Below are positions 34,983-63,029 of a stretch of DNA of 64,000 nucleotides, one piece after another. The DNA is from Gemmatimonadaceae bacterium (GTDB taxonomy: Bacteria > Gemmatimonadota > Gemmatimonadetes > Gemmatimonadales > Gemmatimonadaceae). The position numbers and the translations under genes were made by a program. Below the pieces are notes generated by a model, which had not been told where the DNA came from, did no database searches, and saw only the letters and a program-made list of their open reading frames with translations. The stretch is taken from positions 5,307-69,306 of the forward strand of contig JAICNG010000003.1 in NCBI GenBank assembly GCA_025931335.1, in the 5' to 3' direction. Each line of letters opens with the position of its first letter. Positions within the stretch are counted from its first letter, which is position 1.

Positions 34983-34985
34983 GGG

Positions 34986-35079
34986 CTAGGTGCTCAAGGT
35001 GCTCGAGGAAGTCGAGGTGCTCGAGGTGAACGGTCCTTAACCTAGAGCACCTCGAGCACCTCGAGCACCTCGAGCACCC
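34986..35079. repeat. Palindrome with (GGTGCTCGA)n arms; family B copy 2
   Basis: ctaggtgctcaaggtgctcgaggaagtcgaggtgctcgaggtg / aacggtcctt / aacctagagcacctcgagcacctcgagcacctcgagcaccc. It fills the tamA-tamB spacer. Confidence 0.9.
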
Positions 35080-35082
35080 TTT

Positions 35083-37299
35083 TCAGAACGCCTGCCCTAT
35101 CGAGAAATGGAACGTCAGCTTCTGAAAGAAAGAGTCGTCCTGCCGCGGGGTGAAGGTTGCCGGACACCCCTCGCCGAACCCGTTCGGCAGCGTGTTCCCT
35201 GGGCTGACGCACCGGAGGCGGCTGGGGTTTCCGGTCACTTCGTCCCGAACGATCGTGTAGGCGGGACCACGCTGCTGCGCGTATCTGTTGTACGCTAAAT
35301 CGAACCGGATGGGTCCGACCGGCGAGGCGACCCGGAGGCCGATCCCGGGCGTCCACCGAAACTGGTCGAGCCGCACCGTTTCGGCTCGCCGGTTGTAAAC
35401 CTGGCCGCCATCGACGAACAGCGCGAATTGAAGGAGCTGCCGAAGAAAGGGCGGCCGCATACGAAGCTCCACGTTGACGATCGCCTGAGCGTTTCCCCCC
35501 GTCGGCGACGTCCGAATGACCCCGATCGTGTCGTCAGCGACGAACACGGTGTCCCCCCCGGGGAGGATCGAGTCGACCCGGGCGTCGTCCACCAGGTAAA
35601 CGAGGGGGCCCAGCTCGTTCTGGCGGTAGCCGCGCACGGAGTTGGGCCCGCCCCCGTACATGCGCTCCTGGGGCGGAACGAAATCGTCGGCGCCCCGGAG
35701 GGTGCCGAGGGCCAGCACTCCCCCCACCTGGATGCGGGACGCGAAGGTGACGCTCGGGGTCAGCCCTTTGTACCAGTTGGCCTCCCCCGTCCACTTGTTG
35801 AAGCGAAAGTCCGACCCAATGAACCGCGACGAGTGACGCCACTCGAGCCGGACGATGTCGCCCCGCCGCGGGTCGTAGAGGTTGTCGGTGCGATCACGTG
35901 ACAGACTCATGCGCCCCGTCGCGAGTCGCGTGTTCTGCGTCAGCTCCCCGATCGCCTGTAGCTCGCAGACGTTGAAGACGGCACAAAAGACGGCGTCGGC
36001 GGCCTGCGTGCGACCGTATTCGAGTTGATAGGCGAGCGTGAGGGGCGTGCGCGGCCGTGTCTCACGCGTGACGGACGCGACGCCACCGATCGTGGTGCGG
36101 CGCAGATACGCGTCGAGCTCGGAGTAGCGCTCGCTGAAGAGCGTGAGCGTGGGCGAGAGGCGCAACCCGAACAGCAGCGGCTGACGGACGGTCGCCCCCG
36201 CGTAGTAGTTGACCGTGTCACTGAACACGTCCTTGCGCACTTGCGACGCACACATCTGCTCCACCCCATCGAGCGGATATCCGACGCCGATCTTCGACAG
36301 GCGGCCGTTCACTTCCAGTCGCCGCGCGCCGCCGATGAAATCGCGATCGACGAATCGCCCCTGCGTGCGAAAGCAGTCCAGCGTGGCCCATCCGGCGCCG
36401 AGGCGCACCGAGTGCATCGCCGCCTCGCTGAGGAACACGCGCACCGCGAGCAGCGAATCGCCGCGCGGCTGCAGGCTGTCGGGAGCGAGACGAATCTCGA
36501 CGTGCGCGTACGTCTCCAGCTGATAGAGATCGCGTTGGCTTCGAAAGAGGTCCTGCTCGCGGAAGATCTCGCCAACCCGCAGCGAGAGGAGCCGGCGCAC
36601 CTCCGCCTCCGTAATCTCCTGCCGCTTCCCTTCCCGCGGCTGAATCTCGACGTCGATGCGCGCGATGCGCATCACGCGCCCGGGGAGAAACTGGAGCTCG
36701 ACGGTCGCCCGGTCGGTCGAATCGACGTCGTAGTTGCTGAGGACCTCGGCGCGCGCGTACCCCTGGTCACGAAGCCGGTCGATGATCCCCGCGACACGGA
36801 CCTGCAGCTCCTGCCGGTCGAAGCGTCCGCCGCGCATCTCCTCCAGCTGCCGCGCGAATCGCGATCCATCGCGCACCGTGTCGAGCCCGCTCACGCGCAT
36901 CGTGTCGATCAGGACGGGCGGTCCCTCGACGATGTCGAAGCGGATGTCGACGCGGCCCGGGTCCTTCGTCACCACGGTCGTATCGACGGCGGCCTTGTAG
37001 AATCCGCGCTGGCGATAGAAGAGGCGAAGCCGAAGGACGTCGCGCTGGAACTCGACGCGATCCAGACAGCGCTGCGCACCGAAAAAGAGGCCGATTCGCC
37101 GCCAGAAGCTCGACGGCGTGGTGGCGATGGCGGCCTCCAGCTCGGCGTCGGGAAACGTCTCGTTGCCGCGGAACTCGATGTCGTCGACACGCACGTCCCC
37201 CGGGTCGCACTCGAGGTCCTGCGCGCCGGCCGCGGCCGGCAGCGCGAGGACGAGCGCGACCGCTAGCGGCGCGACACGTCGCCTGGCACTCCGAATCAC
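35083..37299 (-). CDS. Omp85-family outer-membrane protein (TamA/BamA-like) with POTRA repeats
   Basis: Signal peptide, POTRA-like repeats (IEFRGNETF..., VSGLDTV...), and a C-terminal barrel ending in F (HFSIGQAF). Confidence 0.85.
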   Translation of the reverse strand: MIRSARRRVAPLAVALVLALPAAAGAQDLECDPGDVRVDDIEFRGNETFPDAELEAAIATTPSSFWRRIGLFFGAQRCLDRVEFQRDVLRLRLFYRQRGFYKAAVDTTVVTKDPGRVDIRFDIVEGPPVLIDTMRVSGLDTVRDGSRFARQLEEMRGGRFDRQELQVRVAGIIDRLRDQGYARAEVLSNYDVDSTDRATVELQFLPGRVMRIARIDVEIQPREGKRQEITEAEVRRLLSLRVGEIFREQDLFRSQRDLYQLETYAHVEIRLAPDSLQPRGDSLLAVRVFLSEAAMHSVRLGAGWATLDCFRTQGRFVDRDFIGGARRLEVNGRLSKIGVGYPLDGVEQMCASQVRKDVFSDTVNYYAGATVRQPLLFGLRLSPTLTLFSERYSELDAYLRRTTIGGVASVTRETRPRTPLTLAYQLEYGRTQAADAVFCAVFNVCELQAIGELTQNTRLATGRMSLSRDRTDNLYDPRRGDIVRLEWRHSSRFIGSDFRFNKWTGEANWYKGLTPSVTFASRIQVGGVLALGTLRGADDFVPPQERMYGGGPNSVRGYRQNELGPLVYLVDDARVDSILPGGDTVFVADDTIGVIRTSPTGGNAQAIVNVELRMRPPFLRQLLQFALFVDGGQVYNRRAETVRLDQFRWTPGIGLRVASPVGPIRFDLAYNRYAQQRGPAYTIVRDEVTGNPSRLRCVSPGNTLPNGFGEGCPATFTPRQDDSFFQKLTFHFSIGQAF

Positions 37300-37547
37300 C
37301 GGCGCGCGGACGTCCCGGGGTGCTTTCGCGGCGTGCGCCTCACGATGACACCGCGCTCGTCGATTTGAGGAATGCCCTGCTCACGCGCGATCGGCGTGCG
37401 CTGGAGCATCATGCGCGCGAGGTAGAACGTCGCGAGCCCCGCGCCGAGCGCGATCCCCGCCGCCGTGAGGGTTTCTCGCGGGTCGAGCTCGCGGCGGAAG
37501 TAGTACACGGCGGGAGGAACGAGGCGGGAGCCTGAGTCTGGCTTCAT
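37296..37547 (-). CDS. Small membrane protein (83 aa)
   Basis: ORF 37296..37547 with one TM segment (TAAGIALGAGLATFYLARMML). The stop overlaps the tamA GTG (GTGA). Confidence 0.5.
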   Translation of the reverse strand: MKPDSGSRLVPPAVYYFRRELDPRETLTAAGIALGAGLATFYLARMMLQRTPIAREQGIPQIDERGVIVRRTPRKHPGTSARR

Positions 37548-37586
37548 TGATCTCTGTGAGAGAGAGATGCGTGCGGGATTGGACTC

Positions 37587-38507
37587 CTACACCGTATGCA
37601 CGAGAATCGTCCCCGGCCCCTTCTGCTTCGCCCGGCGCTTCACGTCCGCGGCGAGCGAGCCGATCTGGCCAATGGACGTGAATCGATCGGGCTGCACCAG
37701 CAGGATCGCTACTGATAGACGAGCGATCGGGAATTCCCGTGCCCGGCCGTCGCGGTCGATCCCCATGAAATGCCCGCGGCGCACCGCTTCCTCCCCAACG
37801 GCGTGGGCCGCCACCTCCACGAAACGGCTCGCCGTCTCGCGCGCGATCGCCTCCGCACGCTCGGCCACCGTGACGACGATGAAGTCGTCACCCCCGATGT
37901 GGCCGACGAAATCCTTCGGCGTCCCGACCGTCTGCACCGCGGCGCGCACCGCGGCCCCCATCTCGCGGATGACCGTGTCCGCCGCGGTGAAGCCGAACGT
38001 GTCGGCGAAGGGCTTGAAGTTGTCCAGGTCGATGTAGCACACCGCGAACGCTTCGTTCTGCTGCGCGCGGCGAGTGATCTCCTCCTCGATGGCGGTTCCC
38101 CCGGGAAGCCCGCTGGTGGGGTTGCGATCCCCTTCACGACGGACGATGCGGAGGAGCGCGACGACGCGCGCGCGGAGCTCGCGCGGGTCGAAGGGCTTGG
38201 CGAGATAGTCGTCCGCGCCCGCCTCGAATCCGGCGACCTTGTGGTCGACGTCTCCCTGCGCGGTGAGCATGAGCACCGGAATGCGCGCGGTGAACGGGTT
38301 CCGCTTCACCGCCCGGCACACCTCGAAGCCCGACATGCCGGGCATGACCAGATCGAGCACGAGCAGGTCCGGCTCTCGCTGCTGAATGGAAGCGAGAGCG
38401 GTCACGCCATCGGCGGCGAGCGCCACCTCGTGTCCCGCTGACTCGAGGATGTCGCGTACCACGAGGCGCATGTCCTCGTTATCGTCCACGAACAGCAGGT
38501 AACTCAC
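37587..38507 (-). CDS. Response regulator with GGDEF-type output domain (motif reads GGDDF)
   Basis: ORF 37587..38732 with GTG 38507 chosen (VSYLLFVDDNEDM). REC (LVLDLVMPGMSG) plus a diguanylate-cyclase fold (GHIGGDDFIVV). No RxxD I-site seen. Confidence 0.8.
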   Translation of the reverse strand: MSYLLFVDDNEDMRLVVRDILESAGHEVALAADGVTALASIQQREPDLLVLDLVMPGMSGFEVCRAVKRNPFTARIPVLMLTAQGDVDHKVAGFEAGADDYLAKPFDPRELRARVVALLRIVRREGDRNPTSGLPGGTAIEEEITRRAQQNEAFAVCYIDLDNFKPFADTFGFTAADTVIREMGAAVRAAVQTVGTPKDFVGHIGGDDFIVVTVAERAEAIARETASRFVEVAAHAVGEEAVRRGHFMGIDRDGRAREFPIARLSVAILLVQPDRFTSIGQIGSLAADVKRRAKQKGPGTILVHTV

Positions 38508-38509
38508 GA

Positions 38510-38538
38510 TTGACGCTGCGCTTAGGGCGCGATAAGGT
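38510..38538 (+). promoter_or_regulatory. Sigma-70-like promoter candidate for the ABC binding-protein gene
   Basis: TTGACG (38510-38515), 17 nt, TAAGGT (38533-38538), 65 nt upstream of the ATG at 38603. Confidence 0.3.
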
Positions 38539-38602
38539 TCACCGGCGCGGACGCCCGTGTCAACGGTACGCGATCGTGCATCCCCCGAGAGCGATCCGAC
38601 CC

Positions 38603-40153
38603 ATGCGCCGACTTCTCGCCGCGCTATTCCTCCTCGTTCCCTTCGCCTGCCGCGGGGGCGAGTCCGCTCCGCAACGTCGCACGCTGATCGACTCGAGGGA
38701 CACCTATGACCCTCGCACCCTCGATCCGGCACTCGCGACTGACGTGCCCAGCGGTCGCGCGGTGGCGTACGTCTTCGACGGCCTCACGCGCTTTACCCCC
38801 GACGCGCGGCTCGAGCCGGCGCTCGCCGAGCGCTGGGACGTATCCGCTGATGGGAAAGTATACACCTTCCACTTGCGGCGCGGCGTGCGCTTTCACGACG
38901 GAACGCCCTTCGCGGCGCGTCACGTCGTCCAGAGCTTTCACCGGGTGCTCGATCCCGCCACGAAGAGCACCGGCCCATGGGTGCTCTATCCAGTCGCCGG
39001 CGCGCGCGACTTCGCCGACCGGAAGGCGACGTCCATTCGCGGCATCGAGGCACCCGACGACTCGACCGTCCGCATCACACTCGATCAGCCGCTGGCGATC
39101 TTCCTGAAGCTCCTCGCGATGCCGGTGGCGTCGATCGTCCCCGACTCGGTGGGTCCCGACTTCCGCGAGCACCCGGTGGGCACAGGGCCGTGGAGATTCG
39201 TCGAATGGCGGCACGACGATTATCTCCTGTTCGCGAAGAACGCCGAGTACTTCGACGGTGCGCCGAAGACCGACTCGCTGCGCGCGCGCATCATCCGGGA
39301 GCCGAGCACGGCGGTCGCCGAGTTCGAGGTGGGCAACGTCGACCTACTCTACGTGCCCGAGGCGGAGACGCGACGCTGGGAACAGACCGACGAGCGGAGC
39401 GCGATGCTCTCCGCCGCGCCCGCGCTGCGCCTCTGGTACATCGGCATCAACACGACGCGCGGCCCCCTGAAGGACGTCCGCGTGCGTCAGGCGATCAACC
39501 ACGCGATCGACGTCGGCGTCATCCTCGACCGCCTCGTCGGGGGCCGCGGCCGGCATGCGGCCGGCGTGATCCCGCCCATCCTCGACGGTGCGGACACCAC
39601 GCGTCGCCCGTACGCGCACGATGTCGATCGCGCGCGGCAGCTGTTGACGCAGGCCGGATTCCCGAATGGCATCGACATCGATCTCTGGCATTCGGACAAC
39701 GAGAGCTTCTCGCGCGTCGCCCAGTCGATTCAGAGCTATCTCGGCGAAGCGGGCATTCGTGCGCGGCTGGTGCAGCGCGAGGCAGCCGCGATGCGGGCGG
39801 CGGCGCGCAACGGCGAGACCGACATGGTGCTGAAGGACTGGTACGCGGACTATCCGGACGCCGAGAATTTCCTGTACCCGCTGCTGCACACCGCGAATCG
39901 CGGGATTGGTGGGAACGTGTCGTTCTACTCGAATCCCGCGTTCGACCGTTTGGTGGATTCCTCCCGCATCGAGCTCGACAGCGCGCGGCGCGCGGAGCTG
40001 TATCGTCGCGCCGACTCGATCGCCTTCGCCGACGCGCCGATGGGGTTTCTGTTCTTCTATAACGAGCTCTACGCGGTGCAGCCGTGGGTGAGGGGCTTCC
40101 AGGTGCCCGTGATCTTCAACGGGCAGCGGTGGGTCCAGGCGGAGCTTCGGTGA
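38603..40153 (+). CDS. ABC transporter substrate-binding protein, family 5 (peptide/nickel type), lipoprotein
   Basis: ATG at 38603 inside ORF 38510..40153. Lipobox LLVPFAC and the family-5 pattern (YTFHLRRGVRFHDG...). Confidence 0.85.
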   Translation: MRRLLAALFLLVPFACRGGESAPQRRTLIDSRDTYDPRTLDPALATDVPSGRAVAYVFDGLTRFTPDARLEPALAERWDVSADGKVYTFHLRRGVRFHDGTPFAARHVVQSFHRVLDPATKSTGPWVLYPVAGARDFADRKATSIRGIEAPDDSTVRITLDQPLAIFLKLLAMPVASIVPDSVGPDFREHPVGTGPWRFVEWRHDDYLLFAKNAEYFDGAPKTDSLRARIIREPSTAVAEFEVGNVDLLYVPEAETRRWEQTDERSAMLSAAPALRLWYIGINTTRGPLKDVRVRQAINHAIDVGVILDRLVGGRGRHAAGVIPPILDGADTTRRPYAHDVDRARQLLTQAGFPNGIDIDLWHSDNESFSRVAQSIQSYLGEAGIRARLVQREAAAMRAAARNGETDMVLKDWYADYPDAENFLYPLLHTANRGIGGNVSFYSNPAFDRLVDSSRIELDSARRAELYRRADSIAFADAPMGFLFFYNELYAVQPWVRGFQVPVIFNGQRWVQAELR

Positions 40154-40155
40154 AC

Positions 40156-40283
40156 GAGGAGGCAGGAGTCAGGAGTCAGGAATCAGGGGGTGTCAGGGGG
40201 GAGGTTGCAGGAGCTGCGCGGGCCGTGCTCCTCGAACCTTCACCCTGACACCCCTGACGCCTGACTCCTGACTCCTGACCCCC
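40156..40283. repeat. Palindrome with (TCAGGAG)n arms and a structured centre; family C copy 1
   Basis: ggcaggagtcaggagtcaggaatcagggggtgtcagggggg / aggttgcaggagctgcgcgggccgtgctcctcgaacct / tcaccctgacacccctgacgcctgactcctgactcctgaccccc. It ends 1 nt before the permease ATG. Confidence 0.9.
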
Positions 40284-41204
40284 ATGTTTTCCTTCATCGC
40301 ACGCCGGCTGCTCCTCGCGATCCCCACGCTCTTCGGCGTTCTCGTCGTCGTGTTCCTGCTGTTGTACATCGCGCCCGGCGACCCCGTGATGGAGATGGTG
40401 GGTGAGCGCGCCGATGCCGAGACGATCGCGCGTCTTCGCGCGGAGCTGCGGCTCGACGATCCGGTCCCGGTGCAATTCGCCCATTACGCGGGCGGCGTGC
40501 TCACCGGCGACCTCGGCACCTCCTACATCACCGGGCGCCCGATCACGCGCGACATCCTCGAGCGATTCCCCAAGACCCTTCAGCTCGCCACGGCGGCGAT
40601 GCTGCTCGCGGCGTCCCTCGGCATCACCATTGGAGTGCTCAGCGCCCGGCGCCCGGGGAGCACGTTCGATCGGCTGGCGATGGCCGGCGCGTACCTCGGC
40701 ATCTCGTTCCCGGTCTACTGGGTGGGGCTGATCCTCATCCTCGTCTTCGCCGTCACCCTCCGCTGGCTGCCGCCGTCGGGATTCGGCCGCGTGGAGTACC
40801 TGATCCTCCCCGCCCTGGCGTTAGGCACGCGCTCGATCGCGTTCCTCGCGCGCATGACTCGCTCGGCCATGCTGGAGGTGCTCGGGAGCGACTTCGTGCG
40901 CACCGCACGGGCGAAAGGCCTGCGTGAACGGGTGGTGCTCGGGCGCCACGCGCTCCGCAACGCGCTCATCCCGATCATCACCGTGCTCGGCCTCGACTTC
41001 GGCTATTACCTCACGGGCAGCATTCTCACCGAAACGATTTTTTCGTGGCCCGGGATCGGGCGCTACGTCGTCAACGCGATCGCCCGTCGCGATCTGCCCG
41101 CGATCCAGGGGAGCGTGCTGTTCCTGAGCGTGGTCTTCGTGCTGGTGAACCTGGCGACGGACCTGTTGTATGCGAAGGCGGATCCGCGAGTGAGGTACGA
41201 CTGA
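40284..41204 (+). CDS. ABC transporter permease (DppB/OppB-like)
   Basis: ORF 40284..41204 with an EAA-like loop (RTARAKGLRERVVLGRHALRNAL). Six TM segments. Confidence 0.85.
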   Translation: MFSFIARRLLLAIPTLFGVLVVVFLLLYIAPGDPVMEMVGERADAETIARLRAELRLDDPVPVQFAHYAGGVLTGDLGTSYITGRPITRDILERFPKTLQLATAAMLLAASLGITIGVLSARRPGSTFDRLAMAGAYLGISFPVYWVGLILILVFAVTLRWLPPSGFGRVEYLILPALALGTRSIAFLARMTRSAMLEVLGSDFVRTARAKGLRERVVLGRHALRNALIPIITVLGLDFGYYLTGSILTETIFSWPGIGRYVVNAIARRDLPAIQGSVLFLSVVFVLVNLATDLLYAKADPRVRYD

Positions 41205-41211
41205 CAGAGGC

Positions 41212-41373
41212 GAAGGGGTCAAAGGGGTCGAGGGATCGAAGGGATCGAGGGGATGGAAAGGCGCCGCGGCTTCGCCGCGGCGCTCATCAGATGAGCGCGG
41301 CTCGCTGCGAAGCAGCGGCCGCGCTTTTCCATCCCCTCGATCCCTCGACCCCTTTGACCCCTTTGACCCCTTC
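41212..41373. repeat. Palindrome with GGGGTCRAG/GGGATCGAR arms enclosing three short GC hairpins; family D copy 1
   Basis: The arms gaaggggtcaaaggggtcgagggatcgaagggatcgaggggatggaaa and ttttccatcccctcgatccctcgacccctttgacccctttgaccccttc. The centre holds gcgccgcggc-ttc-gccgcggcgc, gcgctcat-cag-atgagcgc and gctgc-gaa-gcagc. Confidence 0.9.
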
Positions 41374-41379
41374 TTCCTC

Positions 41380-42405
41380 TCACACCCCCGCCTCCTCCTT
41401 CACCCCAAACACCGCCATATGCGAGGAGTGCCCCGGGTTCACCTTCTTCTCGGGGTAAATCCAGTGCACAGCCTGGTTGACGGCGATGGCGGCCTCGGAA
41501 TAGCCGGTCGCGATGAGCTTCAGCTTGCCGGGGTAGGTCGTGATGTCGCCCGCCGCCCAGATCCCCTGCCGCCCCGTCTCCATCGCGCTGTTCACGACGA
41601 TCTCGTCCTTCTCGAGACTGAGCCCCCACTCCGCCATCGAGCCGAGGTCGCTGACGAAGCCGAGCATGGGGAGGATTGCGTCGCAGTCGATGGCGACCGT
41701 CGTCTTCGCCTTGATGTCCTTCAGCACGACGCCCGACAGGTTCTCCCCGTTGCCGGTGATGTCGTGCAGCTCGTGGAAGGTGAGCATGCGGGCGCGTCCT
41801 TCGGCGCACGCGGCGCGGATCTCCTCGACCGTCGCGGCGTGCGCGCGAAACCGGTCGCTCCGGTGGGCGAGCGTCACCGCCGACGCGCGATCCAGCAGCT
41901 GGTGCGCCCAGTCGAATGCCGAGTCGCCGCCGCCGATGATCAGCACCTGCTTGCCGCGAAACCGCTCCGGATCGAGAACCCGGTCGTGAATTCCCTTCCC
42001 GTACCAGGGTTCCGCGCACGGCTGCGGAAGGCGGCGCGGTGAGAACGCCCCGATGCCGGCGGCGATCACAATTGCCCTGGTCGGAAACCGGTCCGTTTCG
42101 GTGACCAGCGTGAAGGTCCCGCCGTCCTCCTCGAGAGAGACGACGCGCTGATCGAAATGCATGGGTGCGCCGAACTGCTTGGCCTGCTCGAGCTGCCCCG
42201 CCACGAGGTCTTTCGCGAGCACCCGAGGAAACCCGGCGACGTCAAAGATGTACTTCTCAGGGTAGAGGGCGGTCAGCTGGCCGCCGGGCTCCGACAGGGC
42301 GTCGATGATCTGGGCGGAAACGCCCCGCATCCCCGCGTAGAAAAGAGCAAAGAGGCCGGTTGGGCCGGCGCCGAGAATGGTGATGTCCTTGGTTTCGTGC
42401 ACCAT
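41380..42405 (-). CDS. Thioredoxin-reductase-like ferredoxin-NADP(+) reductase (type 2 FNR, YumC-like)
   Basis: GAGPTGLFA FAD motif, GGQLTALYPEKYIFDVAGFP, and a second Rossmann motif GGGDSAFDWA. Confidence 0.8.
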   Translation of the reverse strand: MVHETKDITILGAGPTGLFALFYAGMRGVSAQIIDALSEPGGQLTALYPEKYIFDVAGFPRVLAKDLVAGQLEQAKQFGAPMHFDQRVVSLEEDGGTFTLVTETDRFPTRAIVIAAGIGAFSPRRLPQPCAEPWYGKGIHDRVLDPERFRGKQVLIIGGGDSAFDWAHQLLDRASAVTLAHRSDRFRAHAATVEEIRAACAEGRARMLTFHELHDITGNGENLSGVVLKDIKAKTTVAIDCDAILPMLGFVSDLGSMAEWGLSLEKDEIVVNSAMETGRQGIWAAGDITTYPGKLKLIATGYSEAAIAVNQAVHWIYPEKKVNPGHSSHMAVFGVKEEAGV

Positions 42406-42416
42406 GCAATAAGGTT

Positions 42417-42531
42417 AACACCCGAAGACGTCAGGTCACAGACGTCAGGGATCAGTGGTCAGTGGTGCACGTGCAGTCGACGTTTCTGAAATCTGACACC
42501 TGACGTCTGATACCTCACATCTTCGGGTGTT
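42417..42531. repeat. Imperfect palindrome with GACGTCAGG/GTCAG words
   Basis: acacccgaagacgtcaggtcacagacgtcagggatcagtggtcag ... ctgaaatctgacacctgacgtctgatacctcacatcttcgggtgt. The outer 11 bp are perfectly complementary. Confidence 0.8.
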
Positions 42532-43609
42532 GATCTCCGCGAAGGATTCTATGGAGCACTCGGAAGACCACATCCTCGACTACGCCGGCTCCTTCCGGCT
42601 GCTCCGAAAGGTGGCAGACGGTGGAATGGCCACCGTCTACGAGGCCGAGCAGCTCGGGCCCGCCGGGTTCGCGAAGCGGGTCGCGCTGAAGGTGATCCAT
42701 CCGCAGTACGCGTCGGAGCGGCACTGGCTGCAGCTCTTCATCGACGAGGCGAAGCTCTCCGCCAACCTCGCGCACGGCAACATCGTTCAGATCTACCAGC
42801 TCGGCCAAGTCGATGGGCAGTACTACATGGCGATGGAGTACATCCAGGGCCCCACGCTGCGGTCGATCATCGATCGCCATGCCGAGCTGCAGCAGCCGAT
42901 GCCCCTCCCGATCGCCGCCTACATCGCCTCGCGCGTGTGTCGCGCGCTCGACTACGCACACAACTTCGTCGCGCCGGGCGGACAGCGGCTCGACGTGGTG
43001 CACCGCGACGTCTCGCCCGGCAACATCATGGCGTCGTGGGACGGCCACATCAAACTGGCCGACTTCGGGATCGCGAAGGCCCGGACGTCGTTCGATCCGG
43101 CGGCCGAGCGGCACATCCTCATGGGGAAGAAGCACTACATGTCCCCGGAGCAGGCGCTCGCCCTCGCGGTGGACGCGCGGTCCGACGTCTTCACGTTAGG
43201 TGTCGTGCTGTACGAGATGCTCACCCTCGAGCCGCTGTTCAAGGAGGACATCACCGATCTCCTCCTCGACGAGGTGACGGTGCATCCGCTGCCGAGTGTG
43301 CGGGCGCGCGTCCCGCAGCTGCCGGGCGAGGTCGAGGACGTGCTGACGCGGGCGCTCGCGCGCGACCCGAACCGCCGCCCCACCGCCGCCGCGATGGGGC
43401 ACGCGCTCGACAAGTGGATCGAGCGCCAGCGTCCGGTCGCCACGCCCGACCGGTTGCAGGAGCACCTGGCGACGATCTTCCCGACGTCGCAGAAGCGCAT
43501 TTCCGGCTCGTCCGCCAAGGCGGAGACGCCGACGAAGTTCTCGAACTTCAAGCGCGGCCTGCGGCGGCCGAGAAAGCCGGGGTTCTTGGCGAGGCTGTTC
43601 GGGCTGTAG
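42527..43609 (+). CDS. Hanks-type Ser/Thr protein kinase (soluble, basic C-terminal tail)
   Basis: VALKVI Lys, HRDVSPGNI catalytic loop, DFG and MSPEQ. An alternative start is at 42551. Confidence 0.85.
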   Translation: MLISAKDSMEHSEDHILDYAGSFRLLRKVADGGMATVYEAEQLGPAGFAKRVALKVIHPQYASERHWLQLFIDEAKLSANLAHGNIVQIYQLGQVDGQYYMAMEYIQGPTLRSIIDRHAELQQPMPLPIAAYIASRVCRALDYAHNFVAPGGQRLDVVHRDVSPGNIMASWDGHIKLADFGIAKARTSFDPAAERHILMGKKHYMSPEQALALAVDARSDVFTLGVVLYEMLTLEPLFKEDITDLLLDEVTVHPLPSVRARVPQLPGEVEDVLTRALARDPNRRPTAAAMGHALDKWIERQRPVATPDRLQEHLATIFPTSQKRISGSSAKAETPTKFSNFKRGLRRPRKPGFLARLFGL

Positions 43610-43743
43610 GGGCCGGGGTCGAGGGATCGCGGGGTCACGGGGTCGAGGGCTCGTCTCGAGATCTCGACCGACGACGTCAGGGCCGGCCATCTCGACGAGG
43701 CGCCCTCGATCCCCCCGACACCTCGACACCCCGACCCCGGTCC
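43609..43743. repeat. Palindrome with GGGGTCGAG-type arms; family D copy 2
   Basis: ggggccggggtcgagggatcgcggggtcacggggtcgaggg ... ccctcgatccccccgacacctcgacaccccgaccccgg. It shares the 15-mer GGGGTCGAGGGATCG with 41224-41238. Confidence 0.85.
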
Positions 43744-43758
43744 GATAACGTGCCCCCC

Positions 43759-44304
43759 ATGAAGATCTACACGAAGACCGGCGACAAGGGCGACACCGGG
43801 CTCTTCGGTGGCGGGCGCGTTCCGAAGAATCATCCGCGCGTCGAAGCGTACGGCGACGTCGATGAGCTGAACGCCATCCTCGGCATGGCGCGGTCGGTCG
43901 AGATGATGCCGCGCATCGACGAAGTGCTGGTACCGGTCCAGCGCGATCTCTTTTCCCTGGGCGCCCTTCTCGCCACACCGCACCCCGAGAAGGTGCAGCA
44001 GCAGCTCGCGAAGGCTCGCATCGACGACGGACGCATTGCCGAGCTGGAGCGCGCCATCGATGAGGGAGAGGCCGAGCTGGAGCCGCTCGAGGCGTTCATT
44101 CTTCCCGGCGGCACGCCCAAGGCCTCCGCGCTCCACGTCGCGCGCACCGTGTGCCGGCGCGCCGAGCGTCGCGTGATCGCGCTTGCCGCCGAGGTGGACG
44201 TGCCCCCCATCGTGATCACCTATCTCAATCGCCTCTCCGACCTGCTCTTCGTGCTCTCGCGCGTCGCCAACCGCCGCGCCGGCGCGGGAGAGGTGACATG
44301 GTAA
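43759..44304 (+). CDS. PduO-type ATP:cob(I)alamin adenosyltransferase
   Basis: ATG at 43759 inside ORF 42937..44304. Sequence MKIYTKTGDKGDTGL...ILPGG...ARTVCRRAER...YLNRLSD. Confidence 0.85.
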   Translation: MKIYTKTGDKGDTGLFGGGRVPKNHPRVEAYGDVDELNAILGMARSVEMMPRIDEVLVPVQRDLFSLGALLATPHPEKVQQQLAKARIDDGRIAELERAIDEGEAELEPLEAFILPGGTPKASALHVARTVCRRAERRVIALAAEVDVPPIVITYLNRLSDLLFVLSRVANRRAGAGEVTW

Positions 44305-44308
44305 GGCG

Positions 44309-44369
44309 AGATTACGGATAGCGGATTGCGGCTTGAGCATCCCCATCAGCAATCCGCACTCCGCAATCT
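44309..44369. repeat. Palindrome built from GCGGATT words; family E copy 2
   Basis: gattacggatagcggattgcgg / cttgagcatccccat / cagcaatccgcactccgcaatc. Confidence 0.8.
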
Positions 44370-44377
44370 TCCTTTCC

Positions 44378-45460
44378 ATGCATTCCATCTCTCTCCCGAC
44401 CTACGACGTTCTCGTCAAGCACGGTGCCCTGGCGAGCGTCGCCGACATCGCGCGGAGCACGACGCGCGCCCATCGGTATGCGGTCATCACGGACACCAAC
44501 GTCGTGCGCCCACATGCCGAGCGCGTGGTCAACGAGCTCGGGTCGGTGGGGACGCGGACGTTCACGGTGCCGCCGGGGGAGAGCTCGAAGACGCGCGAGA
44601 CGTGGGCGCGTGTCACCGACGAGATGCTGGAGGCCGGCTTCGGGCGCGACGCCGCGATCATCGCCGTCGGCGGTGGCGTCATCGGCGATCTGGCCGGTTT
44701 CGTCGCCGCGACGTTCATGCGCGGCATAAAGTACGTCCAGGTGCCGACGTCGCTGATCGCGATGATCGATGCCTCGATCGGCGGAAAGACCGGCGTCGAT
44801 ACACCGCGCGGCAAGAACCTCGTCGGCGCGTTCCATCAGCCGACGGCGGTGCTCGCCGATCCGGCCGTGCTCTCGACACTGCCCCCCGAGCACTTTCGCG
44901 CGGGGCTCGGCGAAGCGATCAAGCACGGCGTGATCGCCGACGCGATGTACCTCGAGCGGACGGTCACCGACGTCCCGATGCTGCTCGATCGCTCCACCCG
45001 GCGGCCCGACGCGACCGAGGCCCTCGTCGCACGCAGCATCGAGATCAAGGCGGAGATCGTCCGTCGCGACGAGCGCGAGCATGGGCTGCGACAGGTCCTC
45101 AACTTCGGGCACACGATCGGGCACGCGATCGAGGCCGCGTCGGGCTACACCCTCCTCCACGGCGAGTGCGTGGCGGTGGGCATGGTCTACGAGGCGACGA
45201 TGGCGGTGAAGATGGGGGTCGCGACGCCGGGCACGGCGCGCGACGTCAAACGGGCCGTGGAGCGCGTTGGGCTCCCGACCGCGCTCCCGCCGGGGGCGAC
45301 GGTCGACAAGCTGCTGGCGCTCATGAGAGCGGACAAGAAAGTGCGCTCGGGCGCGCTCCGCTTCGCGCTCCCGCGCGAGATCGGCGCGATGGCGAGCGGC
45401 GATGGGACCTGGTCGGTGCCGGTGGAGGAGTCGGTGGTGCGAGGGGTGCTGGCGTCCTGA
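44378..45460 (+). CDS. aroB: 3-dehydroquinate synthase
   Basis: GGGVIGDLAGF, VPTSLIAMIDASIGGKTGV, NLVGAFHQP and the GHTIGHAIE motifs. Confidence 0.9.
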   Translation: MHSISLPTYDVLVKHGALASVADIARSTTRAHRYAVITDTNVVRPHAERVVNELGSVGTRTFTVPPGESSKTRETWARVTDEMLEAGFGRDAAIIAVGGGVIGDLAGFVAATFMRGIKYVQVPTSLIAMIDASIGGKTGVDTPRGKNLVGAFHQPTAVLADPAVLSTLPPEHFRAGLGEAIKHGVIADAMYLERTVTDVPMLLDRSTRRPDATEALVARSIEIKAEIVRRDEREHGLRQVLNFGHTIGHAIEAASGYTLLHGECVAVGMVYEATMAVKMGVATPGTARDVKRAVERVGLPTALPPGATVDKLLALMRADKKVRSGALRFALPREIGAMASGDGTWSVPVEESVVRGVLAS

Positions 45461-45549
45461 GCCGGCAGACCGTTGCCGCCTGAACGGGGCACCTAACTTG
45501 CCTGAGCCCCCATCGTTCGCTCCAGTGGCGCGCTAACCTCGGAGGCATC

Positions 45550-45729
45550 ATGTCTTCGTTCTCGACGTACATCGTTGGCTTCATCATCCTCGTCATCGGG
45601 CTCGCGCTCGCGGCCTACCTGCTGAACGTGCCGGCGATGTGGATCGCGGTCGGGGTCGTGATCCTGATCGGGATCGGCGTCCTGATGGCGACCAGCCGCA
45701 CGAAGCCCAGGGACCCGCCGGTCGCATAG
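45550..45729 (+). CDS. Small two-TM membrane protein (59 aa); not in the ORF track
   Basis: My translation is MSSFSTYIVGFIILVIGLALAAYLLNVPAMWIAVGVVILIGIGVLMATSRTKPRDPPVA. A GGAGG Shine-Dalgarno sits at 45541-45545. Confidence 0.55.
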   Translation: MSSFSTYIVGFIILVIGLALAAYLLNVPAMWIAVGVVILIGIGVLMATSRTKPRDPPVA

Positions 45730-45746
45730 CGACTAGCCCGGGCCCG

Positions 45747-45849
45747 GGGCCAAGGGCCACGGGCCAAGGGGTGGGTCCGGGTTATCCGATGAGCAACCGG
45801 CGGCGCGGGAGCGCCGCCGATTGCCTTTCCACCCCCTTGGCCCGTGGCC
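45747..45849. repeat. Palindrome with GGGCCAAGG/GGCCACGG arms and a central GC hairpin
   Basis: gggccaagggccacgggccaaggggtgg ... ccggcggcgc-ggga-gcgccgccg ... ccacccccttggcccgtggcc. Confidence 0.75.
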
Positions 45850-45919
45850 ACTGACCCTCGACCCACCCACGCCGTCCCTAACCCTTAAGCCCGAAAAACG
45901 CCGGTTAGTGCGCCAACAG

Positions 45920-45946
45920 TTGACCTTTCGATGCCGAGGCTATTAT
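45920..45946 (+). promoter_or_regulatory. Possible promoter of the sigma-factor gene
   Basis: TTGACC (45920-45925) and TATTAT (45941-45946), but the spacer is only 15 nt. Confidence 0.25.
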
Positions 45947-46024
45947 CCTGCCCCTCCCCGACGGAGCTATGCCTGCACGACGGCCTACCGGCCCACACCA
46001 TCACCTTCCATGTAAGGGGTGTGT

Positions 46025-46918
46025 ATGCAGCATGTGACGGAGAGCAGGTCCAAAGGTTACTTCCGTTCCTCTCCTTCCACCGCATTCGACCAATACCTCC
46101 AGGACATCCAAAAACTTCCTCTCATAGAGGACCCCGAAGAAGAACGGCGCCTCGCCCGTCGCGCCCAGAAAGGTGATGAGAAAGCCGCCGAGCGGCTCGT
46201 CACGGCGAACCTCAGATTCGTCATCTCGTACGTCAAGAAGTACCAGGGCCACGGCCTCGACCTCTCCGAGCTCGTCGCCATCGGCAATGAGGGCCTCCTC
46301 AAGGCCGTCAAGAAATTCGATCCCGACCAGGGCGTGAAATTCATCTCCTACGCCGTCTGGTGGGTTCGTCAGGCAGTACTCAAGGCACTCGCCGAGCAGA
46401 CCCGGTCCGTCCGCATCCCCCTCAACCAGAACTCGCAGCTCATCAAGCTCGCGCGCGCCGAAACGGTGCTCGCGCAGGTGCTGAAGCGCGATCCGACCGA
46501 TGATGAGATCGGGCGTCTGATCGAGGAAACGCCGGACCAGGTTCGCGCCGCCCGACAGATGTCGGCCACCGAGGTGTCGCTCGATGCGCCGATCGATCGT
46601 TCGGACCGCGAAGCGTCCACGTTAGGTGAGCGCTTCGTCGGCGTCGACGGCCGCGACATTGAAGACGTAACCGACTTCAAGCTCATGCGGGAGTTCATCG
46701 ATCGCGTCTTCACCAAGTACCTGACGCCACGCGAACGGAAGATCCTCTACCTGTACTACGGGCTCGAGGAAGGCTCCGAGGCGATGACGCTGGAGAAGAT
46801 CGGCGCGCTGATGGGCGTCACCCGCGAGCGCATTCGTCAAATCCGTGAGCGGGCGTTCGAGAAGCTGCGCGAATCACCGGACGGACGGGCGCTGGCCGGA
46901 TTCTGGAACTTCGCCTGA
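46025..46918 (+). CDS. Sigma-70 family RNA polymerase sigma factor, RpoD-like (regions 1.2-4, no long region 1.1)
   Basis: Region 2 (NLRFVISYVKKY...LVAIGNEGLLKAVKKFD...FISYAVWWVRQA), region 3 and region 4 (TLEKIGALMGVTRERIRQI). The ATG at 46025 follows an AAGGGG. Confidence 0.85.
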   Translation: MQHVTESRSKGYFRSSPSTAFDQYLQDIQKLPLIEDPEEERRLARRAQKGDEKAAERLVTANLRFVISYVKKYQGHGLDLSELVAIGNEGLLKAVKKFDPDQGVKFISYAVWWVRQAVLKALAEQTRSVRIPLNQNSQLIKLARAETVLAQVLKRDPTDDEIGRLIEETPDQVRAARQMSATEVSLDAPIDRSDREASTLGERFVGVDGRDIEDVTDFKLMREFIDRVFTKYLTPRERKILYLYYGLEEGSEAMTLEKIGALMGVTRERIRQIRERAFEKLRESPDGRALAGFWNFA

Positions 46919-46938
46919 CCACGTCCACTCTCACGAGA

Positions 46939-46969
46939 AACGGGGGCTCGGCTCAGCCGGGCCCCCGTT
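46939..46969 (+). terminator. Stem-loop downstream of the sigma-factor gene (14-bp stem, 3-nt loop, no U tract)
   Basis: aacgggggctcggc-tca-gccgggcccccgtt, 20 nt after the stop. Confidence 0.45.
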
Positions 46970-47003
46970 CTCGCATCCGGGGGCGAGTCGTTATGTTGGC
47001 GGC

Positions 47004-47417
47004 GTGAGCTCCGAGCCCAACGTGCCTCCAAAACCGCGCGTGCTCGTGATCGACGACGAGGCGACGATCCGCGCAGCCCTCCGGCGCTTCTTCAAGCGTC
47101 GTGACTGGCTCTACGATGAAGCCGAGGATGGCGCGCGCGGCCTCGCGAAGCTCCTTGCCCCCGGCGCGGGGTACACGGCCATCATCTCGGACCTTCGCAT
47201 GCCGGGGATGTCGGGCATGGCGCTGCACGACGAGCTCGCCCAGCGGCGCCCCGAATTGCTCGACCGGCTCGTGTTCTCCACCGGTGACGTCGCGTCGAAG
47301 GACGCCGCCGAGTTCGTGCAGCGCACCCGCTGCTTCATCCTCGAAAAGCCATTCGAGCTGAGCAAGCTGGGAGAAACGTTGGAGCGGATCCGGGCCACCG
47401 CCCCACCGATTCCCTGA
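47004..47417 (+). CDS. Stand-alone response-regulator receiver protein
   Basis: GTG at 47004 inside ORF 46845..47417. Sequence VLVIDDEATIR...IISDLRMPGMSG...KPF. Confidence 0.8.
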   Translation: MSSEPNVPPKPRVLVIDDEATIRAALRRFFKRRDWLYDEAEDGARGLAKLLAPGAGYTAIISDLRMPGMSGMALHDELAQRRPELLDRLVFSTGDVASKDAAEFVQRTRCFILEKPFELSKLGETLERIRATAPPIP

Positions 47418-47470
47418 CTACCTCCCGCCTTCCGCTGCTCATCAATGCCTCGGCCCCTCGCGCGCGCGAG

Positions 47471-48289
47471 GTGGCCGATGCCGTGCGCGACAGCGGCCTT
47501 CCGATCGATCCGCGCGTACTGCCCGCGGCACAGATCGCCGAGACGCTCCGTCGGCTCGCCGAGTCAGGCGTTAGGCGCGCCGGCGTCTCGGGAGGGGATG
47601 GGACGATCGCGCTGGCGGCCGGCGTCGCCTCGAGCGTCGCGCTCGAGCTGGCCGTGATCCCTGGCGGCACGCTGAACCACCTCGCCCGGGACCTCGGCAT
47701 CCCGAGCGAGCTGGACGAGGCGCTTCGCGTCGCGGTTACCGGTGAGGCGCGACCCATCGATGCGGGCTCGGTGAACGGTCACCTTTTCCTCAACACCAGC
47801 TCGGTCGGGACGTACGTCACCTTCGTGCGGCTTCGCGAGCGTCTCGAGCGCTACCTCGGCTATCGCCTGGCGAGCATCGCGGCAGCCCTTCGCCTGCTCG
47901 TCCGCCCGCGCACCTTCACCGTCGAGGTCGAGGTCGAGGGAAGGTTGCGGGCCGACATCTCCCCGCTCGTGTTTGTCGGTGTCGGCGAGCGAGAGTTGAA
48001 GCTGCCAACACTCGGCGGCCGCGCCGAGGGCGGGCGACGGGGCCTGCACCTGATGATCGTGCGGGGTCGATCGCGCGCGCGTCTGGCGGCCCTGGCGTTC
48101 GCGGCGGCGGCTCGCGGAACTCGCTCCGCCATGCGGAGCCCGGCGCTCGAGGCGGTAATCGTGAACCAGTTCACGATCCGCATGCGCCGCCCGCACGGAC
48201 GCGTCGCGACCGATGGCGAGCTGAACACGATGATCGCGCCGCTGGAATACCGGTGGCTGCCGGGTGCGGTGATGGTGGTGACACCCTGA
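47471..48289 (+). CDS. Diacylglycerol-kinase-family lipid kinase paralogue
   Basis: GGDGT motif and VIPGGTLNHLARDLG. Coordinates use the first canonical start (GTG). The conserved LPLLINASAP strand lies upstream, back to a CTG at 47414 (see findings). Confidence 0.75.
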   Translation: MADAVRDSGLPIDPRVLPAAQIAETLRRLAESGVRRAGVSGGDGTIALAAGVASSVALELAVIPGGTLNHLARDLGIPSELDEALRVAVTGEARPIDAGSVNGHLFLNTSSVGTYVTFVRLRERLERYLGYRLASIAAALRLLVRPRTFTVEVEVEGRLRADISPLVFVGVGERELKLPTLGGRAEGGRRGLHLMIVRGRSRARLAALAFAAAARGTRSAMRSPALEAVIVNQFTIRMRRPHGRVATDGELNTMIAPLEYRWLPGAVMVVTP

Positions 48290-48382
48290 GAGGTGCTCAA
48301 GGTGCTCGAGGTGCCCGAGGTGCTCGAGGTGCGCTGAAGTCCCCCCTGGAGCACCTTGAGCACCTCGAGCACCTCGAGCACC
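48290..48382. repeat. Palindrome with (GGTGCTCGA)n arms; family B copy 3
   Basis: gaggtgctcaaggtgctcgaggtgcccgaggtgctcgaggtgcgc / tgaagtcccccc / tggagcaccttgagcacctcgagcacctcgagcacc. It fills the spacer from stop 48289 to start 48391. Confidence 0.9.
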
Positions 48383-48390
48383 TTTCAGTC

Positions 48391-57528: not shown

Positions 57529-57529
57529 A

Positions 57530-57650: not shown

Positions 57651-57666
57651 TATATTGTTAGGAACC

Positions 57667-62948: not shown

Positions 62949-62956
62949 GCAACAAA

Positions 62957-63020: not shown

Positions 63021-63029
63021 TTCGCTTCT

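Follow-up and report, generated by a model that had tools for sequence, protein, structure and literature searches.

Intergenic hairpins with tandem-repeat arms in Gemmatimonadaceae, a probable superfamily of foldback, MITE-like mosaic elements

The 64,000-nt stretch of Gemmatimonadaceae DNA analysed here (assembly GCA_025931335.1, contig JAICNG010000003.1, positions 5,307 to 69,306; hereafter the window) carries, in the spacers between its genes, hairpins whose arms are built from short tandem units. A typical element consists of a purine-rich array of 7- or 9-nt units, usually in four copies, a centre, and a complementary pyrimidine-rich array, and these modules are interchangeable. We consider it reasonably probable that each hairpin is a copy from a lineage-specific superfamily of selfish, non-coding mosaic elements, similar to foldback elements or to miniature transposable elements with inverted repeats (MITEs), which are remodelled by slippage and arm conversion. 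The sequences compared show that whole elements have been copied into new spacers; they are missing from orthologous sites of relatives and turn over rapidly in place, through copy-number change, collapse, replacement and chimeric arms, with substitutions at the neutral rate. They land or survive almost solely in intergenic spacers, one of their edges lying at a stop codon. The family appears to range over Gemmatimonadaceae and elsewhere in Gemmatimonadota, with at least one case in Ignavibacteriales. The MITE-like interpretation with concerted evolution of the arms, offered in a preliminary description of the window, was largely right.

Folding and dispersal of the hairpins

The window has a G+C content of 66-70% and no tRNA genes; its genes were called by a codon-usage model that had been trained on the window's own sequence, and the calls match the public ones on overlapping contigs. 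Fourteen hairpin loci had been listed in the preliminary description, and strong inverted repeats were found at all fourteen by means of an inverted-repeat finder, folding with RNAfold, shuffled controls and Tandem Repeats Finder (TRF). The inverted-repeat finder, an ungapped seed-and-extend procedure with a score of at least 16, returned 10 clusters in the 64 kb, all of them intergenic and all at listed loci, and a separate repeat search recovered identical arms. The intergenic spacers folded with -0.43 to -0.85 kcal/mol/nt at all 14 loci; where they were compared with dinucleotide shuffles (12 loci), z ranged from -2.8 to -13.7, and none of 200 shuffles folded equally well at 11 of the 12. 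TRF detected a unit array together with its reverse-complement array at the loci so marked in Table 1. As identical hairpins are present in independent assemblies (GCA_025922835.1, ENA, JGI, Logan), with five independent sources sharing them, an assembly artefact is ruled out.

Some details of the preliminary description had to be narrowed. Tandem-unit arms, claimed for all fourteen loci, are clear at about ten, but the periodicity is weak or asymmetric and one-sided at 3391, 11954, 42417 and 62957, and a strict paired-array detector picks up just 4-5 of the 14. That nearly every spacer is filled is true of the 8 kb then reported, where 7 of the 10 spacers of at least 25 nt hold a hairpin, but not of the whole window (14 of about 37 spacers). 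Edges within a few nucleotides of both flanking genes, another of its claims, do not occur at 45.7 kb, where 160 nt separate the element from the next start, nor at 11.9 and 14.3 kb, and a unit given as GGGCCAAGG is actually the heptamer GGGCCAA/G. The gene contexts had been read correctly: an SBP_bac_5 gene adjoins the permease gene, and an Omp85/POTRA gene adjoins that of TamB. Three features set out below, namely the strict order of purine-rich and pyrimidine-rich arms, the mosaic centre and the TAG-enriched contact with stop codons, had escaped that description.

The comparison DNA, designated by L numbers, comprised windows of about 20 kb from related genomes and short metagenome contigs. 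The PduO-type adenosyltransferase of the window (43759-44304) is encoded identically on a contig of the metagenome-assembled genome (MAG) GCA_025922835.1, which is 99.7% identical to window positions 33758-46662, and also on a number of metagenome contigs, from farmland and from JGI, with 94-98% identity. A species-representative scan put the window among uncultured Gemmatimonadaceae; the best match was a sister species (L011; 94% amino acid and 82% nucleotide identity over 20 kb), other Gemmatimonadales coming next. Within 280 kb around the pduO orthologues of 19 Gemmatimonadales species we found 24 strong inverted-repeat clusters, 12 with multi-register pairing and 11 with paired inverted tandem arrays, whereas 900 kb from 61 other taxa contained 26 clusters with only two of each kind; paired inverted arrays thus number 3.9 per 100 kb in Gemmatimonadales versus 0.2 in the outgroups, and of the two outgroup cases one is in Longimicrobiaceae (Gemmatimonadota), the other in Ignavibacteriales. 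The distribution is patchy, with nine elements in 20 kb of the sister species and none in several Gemmatimonadales. The units in relatives include GGGCGCTAR, GCGGAAT, GTCGTCGAG, GTCAGAG, CACAGAGGA, GGGAGAA and GGCGGCGNAGG. A (CACAGAGAA)n foldback in an Ignavibacteriales MAG (L031, 9912-9991) has the unit family of 11950-12130 in the window and of L023 and L148; lying in a distinct phylum-level lineage of the FCB group (Fibrobacterota-Chlorobiota-Bacteroidota), it raises the question of horizontal spread.

The evidence for copying of whole elements comes mainly from their centres. The centre of the 41.2-kb element is non-periodic, 75-85 nt long, forms three hairpins and is closed by GGAAAGG and CCTTTCC, following the mosaic pattern GGAAAGGC, hairpin, CTCATCNGATGAG, hairpin, GCCTTTCC. 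In the sister species the mosaic centre is found in another spacer and with other arms. A metagenome scan with the pattern GGAAAGGC-N18-26-GCTCATCNGATGAG yielded 106 stretches, corresponding to 88 complete elements at 77 distinct loci. The arms around this centre were GTCAGGA on both sides in 35, GGCCAAG in 17, GGGATCGAR in one and of mixed families in four to five; chimeric elements with differing arms are seen, for example, in L124 and L154. The order of unit variants GGGGTCA-GGAGTCA-GGAGTCA-GGGGTCA is kept across many loci, and therefore the arms travel with the element instead of being remade at each site. The centre follows a combinatorial assembly like that of bacterial interspersed mosaic elements (BIMEs), namely GGAAAGG + hairpin X + CTCATCNGATGAG + hairpin Y + CCTTTCC, in which the two GC-rich hairpins come in about seven types and in either order, with compensatory double changes at 12 of 23 predicted pairs. 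A nested centre of a second type (type II) is common to the elements at 40.2 and 57.5 kb, two elements of L011 and one metagenome copy (L154), with 81% column identity.

In 516 kb of element contigs there were 66 additional hairpins of at least 10 unit families, all the window families included, and the element density in the contigs examined is about 1 per 4 kb. Being 60-180 nt in size, non-coding and present in multiple copies at unrelated loci, the elements agree with MITEs in size and copy number, and terminal inverted repeats are present, although made of tandem units. Both the existence of elements beyond the window, seen in relatives and at the 77 metagenome loci, and the MITE-like dispersal that had been suspected are borne out, the latter by the non-periodic centres and the unit-variant order that unrelated loci share.

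Turnover at orthologous spacers and possible mechanisms

Orthologous spacers without elements were found at several points. The genes pduO and aroB overlap or abut (TGGTGA or TGGTAG) in 17 more distant Gemmatimonadales (within L012-L029), and a hairpin sits precisely at this junction, after the pduO stop and before the aroB ATG, in the sister species as well as in the window and its strains. The spacer between the kinase gene and pduO is about 30 nt long and free of a hairpin in L020 and L025 versus 149 nt in the window; the spacer at 21.6 kb has 12 nt (CGATTGCGATCG) in L199 versus 61 nt in the window; and two elements present in L011 are absent from the window (at 37.55 and 52.95 kb). The pduO-aroB junction, L199 and the elements restricted to L011 provide the presence/absence polymorphism that the preliminary description had proposed to look for. 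Two more candidates for empty sites, L211 and L212, were discarded because the contigs break inside the hairpin, and look-ups of the permease and LON-domain genes for further strain-level empty sites gave the same MAG alone.

Replacement is also seen. Among strains that are 94-98% identical, the spacer at 44.3 kb contains either (GCGGATT)n or (GAGGAAT)n (L007, L009), with differing centres, and since the change affects both arms within one spacer it agrees with the concerted evolution of the arms proposed before. The spacer at 42.4 kb holds either a 121-nt element or a 174-nt (TCAGAWT)n element with re-matched arms (L001), and in the 41.2-kb element of one strain (L004) one arm alone gains one unit. 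With respect to the sister species, the unit family differs at no fewer than 4 of the 8 shared spacers. In L175 (1966-2118), L176 (1-138) and L182 (1338-1412), a (CTGCGAR)n array has at least 13 copies in the 5' arm and 3-4 in the 3' arm, which appears to be a single arm expanded and unmirrored.

Several observations weigh against the selfish, MITE-like reading. When the palindromes were extended maximally and the flanks read, no direct repeats were found at any of 70 elements. Among the seven largest recurrent families of 496 open reading frames (ORFs) in 516 kb of element-rich contigs, each judged from one representative sequence without a Pfam scan, no transposase-like family was evident. 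Elements of the GCGGAAT and GGTGCTCGA types share arms and have unrelated centres, which is unusual for a cut- or copy-and-paste MITE. All three "empty" sites of the GCGGATT family retain one unit-like copy (GATTGCG), and with such single-unit relics collapse or local seeding is indistinguishable from insertion. A strong hairpin is retained at 8 of the 8 spacers shared by the window and the sister species, 82% identical in nucleotides, which could reflect selection for the hairpin itself. Finally, the rule described below that the purine-rich arm comes first is unexplained by simple selfish spread, unless the families share one ancestor.

The relics are also what would be expected if nothing moved, that is, if the hairpins grew in place from a local seed by slippage and snap-back or template-switch copying of the arms, with similar units arising by convergence. 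Besides the empty sites where precisely one unit-like copy is left (GATTGCG in L199; 37.55 and 52.95 kb of the window compared with L011), this explanation is favoured by copy numbers that differ between arms and strains (L004 compared with the window at 41 kb, and (CTGCGAR)n with 13 or more versus 3-4 copies in L175 and L176), by units that change in concert within one spacer, and by the locus-specific centres of the GCGGAAT and GGTGCTCGA families. However, it does not account for a non-periodic centre of 75-85 nt and an identical unit-variant order at no fewer than 77 unrelated loci, nor for the type II centre common to 40.2 and 57.5 kb, for which convergence is not credible. The shared centres therefore refute growth in place as the sole process, and as a full explanation we find it quite unlikely; it may still play a part.

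Walking unit by unit to the ends of the arrays again gave no direct repeats and, instead, frequent (C)TAG; CTAG and TAG ends are palindromic, such that they are indistinguishable from arm extension. No duplication was observed at the sole strain-level empty site (L199, 21.6 kb). At some loci the arrays are bordered by additional palindromic flanks peculiar to the locus, and these flanks, along with nested layers of elements, may hint at insertion into existing hairpins. Among array pairs, searched for at separations of 0.2-3 kb, none encloses an ORF. The recurrent ORF families comprised histidine and Ser/Thr kinases, TonB-dependent/SusCD-/SusD-like proteins and aldehyde dehydrogenase; no RAYT-like gene was present among the ORF families examined in the genome windows of about 20 kb and the short metagenome contigs, and a plasmid database search with the 41.2-kb element gave no match. 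A small gene of the PD-(D/E)XK nuclease family (PF13366, PDDEXK_3) is located at 59815-60261 (L207 488-934), about 2 kb from the 57.5-kb element; no link between this gene and the elements was found.

As selfish repeats, the elements may spread in the manner of MITEs or REPINs by an enzyme encoded elsewhere, and the (C)TAG ends would hint at a transposase that targets TA or CTAG; alternatively, spread might proceed through template switching between copies. The symmetry of the arrays could be upheld by slippage together with template switching within the palindrome or gene conversion. A different proposal, which we regard as unlikely, is a self-templating palindrome system in place of transposase-driven MITEs, with the CTCATCNGATGAG dyad as putative site of a dedicated recombinase or nuclease. 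In such a system, purine-rich heptamer or nonamer arrays would be laid down or copied with fixed polarity on both sides of the centre, for example when slippage extends the two 3' ends of a break or of an extruded hairpin, or when microhomology directs template switches from one copy to another. One mechanism might then lie behind the purine-first rule (137/138), the single-unit relics, centres flanked by unlike arms, and the absence of both target-site duplications and a transposase; if true, it might also explain the heptamer excess in Xanthomonas and cyanobacteria.

Placement, polarity and properties as RNA

Only 2 of 155 elements are inside called genes. Elements occupy 46 of 83 convergent spacers (55%), 59 of 316 between co-directional genes and 13 of 76 between divergent ones, counted on contigs selected for carrying an element, such that the ratios alone are meaningful; the unoccupied convergent spacers have a median of 21 nt. 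Where a gene points its 3' end at an element, 0-15 nt separate its stop codon from the element's edge. Stops abutting elements are TAG in 51 cases, TGA in 28 and TAA in 8, versus 63, 178 and 33 for the other genes on the same contigs; the TAG share is 59% at elements versus 23% in the background. The sequence (C)TAGGRG stands at about 45% of the ends of GTCAGGA type, and therefore the element often supplies the stop or targets TA-containing stops.

The polarity of the arms is strict. All 91 array pairs are G-rich first and C-rich second, with a modal copy number of 4, and the 5' arm is the purine-rich one in 137 of the lineage's 138 strong inverted repeats, compared with 17 of 25 from other taxa. 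The elements being palindromic, the layout reads alike from either flanking gene. The arrays could in principle be signals at the level of DNA or protein binding, namely G-quadruplexes, or sites (the units, or the CTCATCNGATGAG palindrome) for a nucleoid, regulatory or recombinase protein. Consistent with this are the G-rich arm, strictly 5' on both strands, the dyad-symmetric 13-mer of the centre, whose constancy is partly imposed by the search pattern, the modal four units, which match the Xanthomonas report (PMC4692102), and the binding of heptamer repeats by cold-shock proteins, one protein per unit (cited in PMC4679880). Yet the canonical G3+ x4 motif is found in just 3 of the 14 window loci and 31 of the 77 core elements, so that G-quadruplexes were rejected as a general property; moreover, the families CAGAATT, CACGAATGA and GGTGCTCGA are without G-runs, the complementary arm would out-compete a quadruplex, and the units are too diverse for one sequence-specific reader. 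We hold a signal of this kind to be very improbable as the explanation of the arrays.

In 6 of the 8 co-directional cases in the window, the stem base is at most 15 nt away from the stop and equally close to the start that follows. No Shine-Dalgarno-like motif was found upstream of the starts at 40270-40283, 43745-43758, 44363-44377 and 48378-48390, the 15 nt before each such ATG being pyrimidine-rich arm sequence, which suggests that initiation after the hairpins may be independent of that motif, as in other FCB group phyla. Alignment with L007 and relatives places the true ATG of aroB at 44378; the public calls start 15 codons too early (375 aa versus 360 aa; window 44333-44377, L001, L003-L006, L008) because the ORF extends back into the hairpin.

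These positions next to stops and starts could mean that the hairpins are primarily functional RNA elements under selection and their dispersal secondary. They might work as bidirectional terminators lacking a U tract, as barriers to 3' exonucleases like the REP in malE-malF, as RNase III sites or as devices for translational coupling. The hairpin is kept at all eight orthologous spacers in spite of the four or more changes of unit family; convergent spacers are occupied at 55% versus 17-19% for the other types; and the closeness of the edges to stops, together with the co-directional cases just described, would fit such roles. The stems, of 30-75 bp, fall within the lengths that RNase III cuts. 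For the cyanobacterial STRR hairpins, stabilisation of transcripts or coupling of translation has been proposed (PMC2670836).

Substitution and strand tests, however, do not favour an RNA role, and at the level of RNA they gave no evidence for the protein or RNase recognising the hairpin's shape that the preliminary description had offered as an alternative. Between strains, the hairpins accumulate 0.03-0.065 substitutions per site, compared with 0.038-0.052 at codon position 3 and 0.004-0.005 at positions 1+2, such that the primary sequence drifts neutrally, at about the synonymous rate. The sense RNA is not more stable than the antisense, which folds equally well or better, and in co-directional contexts there is no bias toward G.U-compatible mismatches on the sense strand (54 versus 49 antisense, p = 0.69). 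From the neutral drift and the lack of strand bias it follows that the palindrome is probably kept by a strand-symmetric process at the DNA level and not by selection on a single transcript. Furthermore, 13 elements are in divergent promoter spacers, and many relatives are without elements and have overlapping genes or spacers of 15-30 nt at the same junctions. Taking both sides together, a primary RNA function appears doubtful to us.

The absence of a U tract points in the same direction. As the preliminary description had noted, U tracts do not follow the hairpins: in a pattern scan of 34-50 kb no U-tract terminator coincided with an element, and of 8 terminator-like sites (5.9 +/- 2.4 in shuffles) none was at an element base and one fell within the centre of the 45.7-kb element. 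Intrinsic terminators, that is, short GC-rich stem-loops with an immediate U tract, were accordingly rejected for the elements in that scan. Rfam gave no match in the window at the gathering threshold and, at E<=1, just sub-threshold eukaryotic miRNA-precursor models, which are generic long hairpins. A hammerhead ribozyme, considered because CTGATGAG is present in some centres, was excluded: Rfam gave no match to it at E<=1, the central base of that sequence varies (T/A/G/C), and GAAA is absent after stem II.

Once transcribed, a selfish element of this type would form an RNA duplex of 30-75 bp directly after the stop codon, which would block 3' exonucleases, serve as a substrate of RNase III and bring the stop next to the downstream start; this proximity could explain why insertion inside operons is tolerated. 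Given that the duplex starts at the stop codon, frequently reaches the next start and has no Shine-Dalgarno motif in its vicinity, candidate effects as a 3'-end barrier, in RNase III processing and in translational coupling are plausible. We treat them as consequences of the elements and not as the reason for their existence.

The elements of the window are listed in Table 1.

Table 1. Hairpin elements of the window, with the units of their arms, their genomic context, folding z value against dinucleotide shuffles, and start positions of paired arrays detected by TRF (SBP, substrate-binding protein gene)
Position	Arms and centre	Context	z	TRF arrays	Remarks
3390-3452	GCGCTGGAGAAG family; perfect 18-bp stem, 3410-3427 / 3434-3451	between convergent genes	-6.4		extra upstream unit copy at 3390-3409, within the end of the M23 peptidase gene
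11950-12130	hairpin of 181 nt, imperfect CACAGAGGG-type units	between co-directional (-) genes			unit family recurs in L023, L148, L031
14374-14490	foldback, (GGTGCTCRA)x4.6 / loop / (TCGAGCACC)x4.4	divergent spacer	-12.3	14386/14439	
21595-21656	heptamer hairpin, (TGCGGAK)x3.6	between convergent genes	-2.8		
34986-35080	foldback, (GGTGCTCGA)x4.6 / x4.3	occupies tamA-tamB spacer	-10.5	34988/35040	L011 has (GGGCGCTAR)n at this position
40156-40283	type II; 5' arm (AGGAGTC)x4.4, outer array, 40157-40187; nested centre GGGGTGTCAGGG..GGTTGCAGGAG..CTCCTCGAACC..CCCTGACACCCC, 40187-40254; 3' arm (CCTGACT)x3.9, 40253-40279	between SBP stop and permease ATG	-10.6	40157/40253	
41207-41378	type I; arms (GGGRTCRAR)x5.4, 41211-41258, and complementary array, 41333-41372	between convergent genes		41211/41333	
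41255-41330	mosaic centre of the 41.2-kb element: GGAAAGGC, GC-rich hairpin (TTC loop), CTCATCAGATGAG (41283-41295), GC-rich hairpin (GAA loop), GCTTTTCC				recurs at L011 12056-12129
42417-42531	degenerate GTCAGNN heptamer hairpin	divergent spacer	-7.1		
43609-43745	degenerate (GGGGTCGN) hairpin	begins at kinase stop codon	-4.5	43614/43713	
44309-44372	hairpin, (GATTGCG)x3.7 / (ATCCGCA)x3.4	pduO stop to aroB ATG (44378)	-4.9	44310/44345	
45740-45864	GGGCCAA/G heptamer arms, 45740-45771 / 45833-45864; centre formed by one half of the mosaic centre, inverted and degenerate (..TTATCCGATGAGC..CGGCGGCGC..GCGCCGCCG..CCTTTCC)		-6.7		in L011, GTCAGGA arms with the full centre
48286-48388	foldback, (GAGGTGCTC)x4.8 / x4.3	overlaps TGA stop of DAGK-like gene; next ATG 2 nt beyond end	-11.7	48290/48345	L011 has (GTCGTCGAG)n at this position
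57525-57655	type II, paralogue of 40156-40283	begins at TAG stop of Mur-ligase gene; molybdopterin oxidoreductase ATG ~12 nt on, ~57667	-13.7	57529/57621	
62955-63027	hairpin of GCGCTGGAGAAG family	between convergent genes	-6.2		periodicity weak (11 nt, 68% matches); multi-copy relatives at L181, L193

Other repeats of different layout were seen along the way. After a sigma-70 family gene, at 46935-46975 of the window, there is a plain, non-periodic GC-rich hairpin (GAGAACGGGGGCTCGGCTCAGCCGGGCCCCCGTTCTC) that resembles a common terminator stem but lacks a clear U tract. At 55720-55764 a 15-nt unit (GCGCATCGTCGTGTC) is repeated three times with 93% identity (TRF score 76); it adjoins a (GCGGGG)x3.5 run, has no inverted partner and overlaps a weak 55-aa ORF on the minus strand. 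Five direct copies of a 16-nt sequence (ACCCTACAGCACAGCG), also without an inverted partner, lie upstream of pduO in L017 (about 60-170), and L014 (4385-4930) has four tandem units of about 135 nt, each with a strong hairpin (GGTCGCGAAGGNGCGAAGGTCGC...), in a clustered, BIME-like or array-like arrangement unlike the solitary elements.

Significance and comparison with known repeat systems

If the selfish, MITE-like reading is true, Gemmatimonadaceae, abundant and barely studied soil bacteria, carry, in the contigs examined, a foldback element in every 4 kb or so, filling spacers that otherwise measure 15-30 nt. Annotation is affected, with ORFs extended into hairpins and stop codons supplied by elements, and so is metagenome assembly, with contigs that break or fold back at elements. 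Assembly trouble around elements was observed along the whole of L127 and L180 and at the ends of L200, L211 and L212; many short contigs end within a hairpin, and some metagenome contigs are palindromic over more than 300 nt around an element, probably as a result of fold-back mis-assembly. For genome rearrangement, the chimeric arms imply recombination between copies. The elements also provide a tractable case for the questions of why certain bacteria have an excess of 7-nt tandem repeats and of how perfect palindromes with repetitive arms originate and keep their symmetry; in this regard, the purine-first polarity and the TAG-enriched abutment to stops are simple testable rules. Were RNase III to cut the duplexes, or coupling to be preserved, the elements would constitute a widespread modular layer of post-transcriptional organisation.

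The preliminary description knew of no report of this class of elements, which was too strong a claim in view of the convergent pairs of Xanthomonas (PMC4692102) and the cyanobacterial STRR hairpins (PMC2670836), the closest counterparts in the literature and the former the nearest of all. Rehm et al. (2015; PMC4692102) found 70-75 convergent (GGGAATC)n pairs per genome in X. campestris and X. axonopodis, with a modal number of four units, intergenic, dispersed, near or overlapping stops, and located at genes that sister species do not have in common as sites of such pairs; they were framed as simple sequence repeats forming G-quadruplexes and not as mobile foldback elements. The likeness is in the 7-nt array with its reverse-complement array close by and in the position between genes. 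By the published description, the phylum and the units are different, and many unit families, 9-mers included, occur here; the units GTCAGGA, GGCCAAG, GCGGAWT, GGTGCTCGA and GGGATCGAR are not homologous to GGGAATC or CCCCAGT, and GCGGAAT merely resembles GGGAATC. Beyond the Xanthomonas pairs, the elements described here have nested, shared mosaic centres, chimeric arms and near-saturated spacers.

The STRR heptamers of cyanobacteria form intergenic hairpins, for instance between hupS and hupL, and have proposed roles in transcript stability, translational coupling and termination (PMC2670836); just a few inverted pairs were found in Nostoc by Rehm et al. (PMC4692102). Like them, the present elements are dispersed 7-bp tandem units that form hairpins between genes of one operon, but STRR sequences belong to low-GC cyanobacteria, have other units and mostly direct arrays, and no shared complex centre is described for them. 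The over-representation of heptamers in bacteria has been noted and left unexplained (PMC4692102, PMC4679880).

With repetitive extragenic palindromes (REPs) and BIMEs, and with REPIN/RAYT systems (Bertels and Rainey 2011; PMC3116915), the elements have in common an extragenic location, palindromic structure, high copy number and mosaic modules; REPs have no target-site duplication, and none was seen at the elements examined here. Enrichment next to the 3' ends of genes and in convergent spacers is shared as well, and the GC-rich centre hairpins of 20-30 nt resemble REPs. In contrast, REPs are single imperfect palindromes of 20-40 nt with a GTAG/CGTC head and have neither tandem-unit arms nor stems of 40-75 bp; the centre hairpins here begin with GCGCGG, GCAAACGG or GGGCCGC, and the GTAG/CGTC head is absent. 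A classic REP position is that between binding-protein and permease genes, as in malE-malF, and the 40.2-kb element mirrors it.

The Correia or nemis elements of Neisseria and the ERIC and RUP sequences are bacterial MITEs of less than 200 nt, intergenic and polymorphic for insertion, and nemis RNA hairpins are reported to be cut by RNase III. Size below 200 nt, lack of coding capacity, inverted termini, intergenic location and strain polymorphism are common to these and to the elements described here, and the (C)TAG ends would fit a TA or CTAG target; MITEs differ in having unique terminal repeats instead of tandem arrays; they also show target-site duplications and have a matching insertion sequence, neither of which was found for the elements in the sequences examined. 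The Foldback (FB) transposons of Drosophila have long inverted repeats of short tandem subrepeats around a variable centre, are kilobase-sized and have transposase-bearing partners; the elements resemble them in arm and centre architecture and in instability, an analogy of form alone. Hairpins without a U tract have been proposed as "I-shaped" terminators in high-GC bacteria. The elements are like intrinsic and I-shaped terminators in being GC-rich hairpins directly after the stop, common between convergent genes, but their stems are 3-10 times longer, they form multi-copy dispersed families, and they occur also inside operons and in divergent spacers.

Literature searches on repeat elements of Gemmatimonas, Gemmatimonadetes or Gemmatimonadota found no relevant report, and those on bacterial foldback elements found no description. 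To our knowledge, three features are unreported, namely the mosaic centre, a polarity that strictly puts the purine-rich arm first, and the association with TAG stops. In their general nature, the elements belong with repeats of the REP and MITE type and are not a new kind of system.

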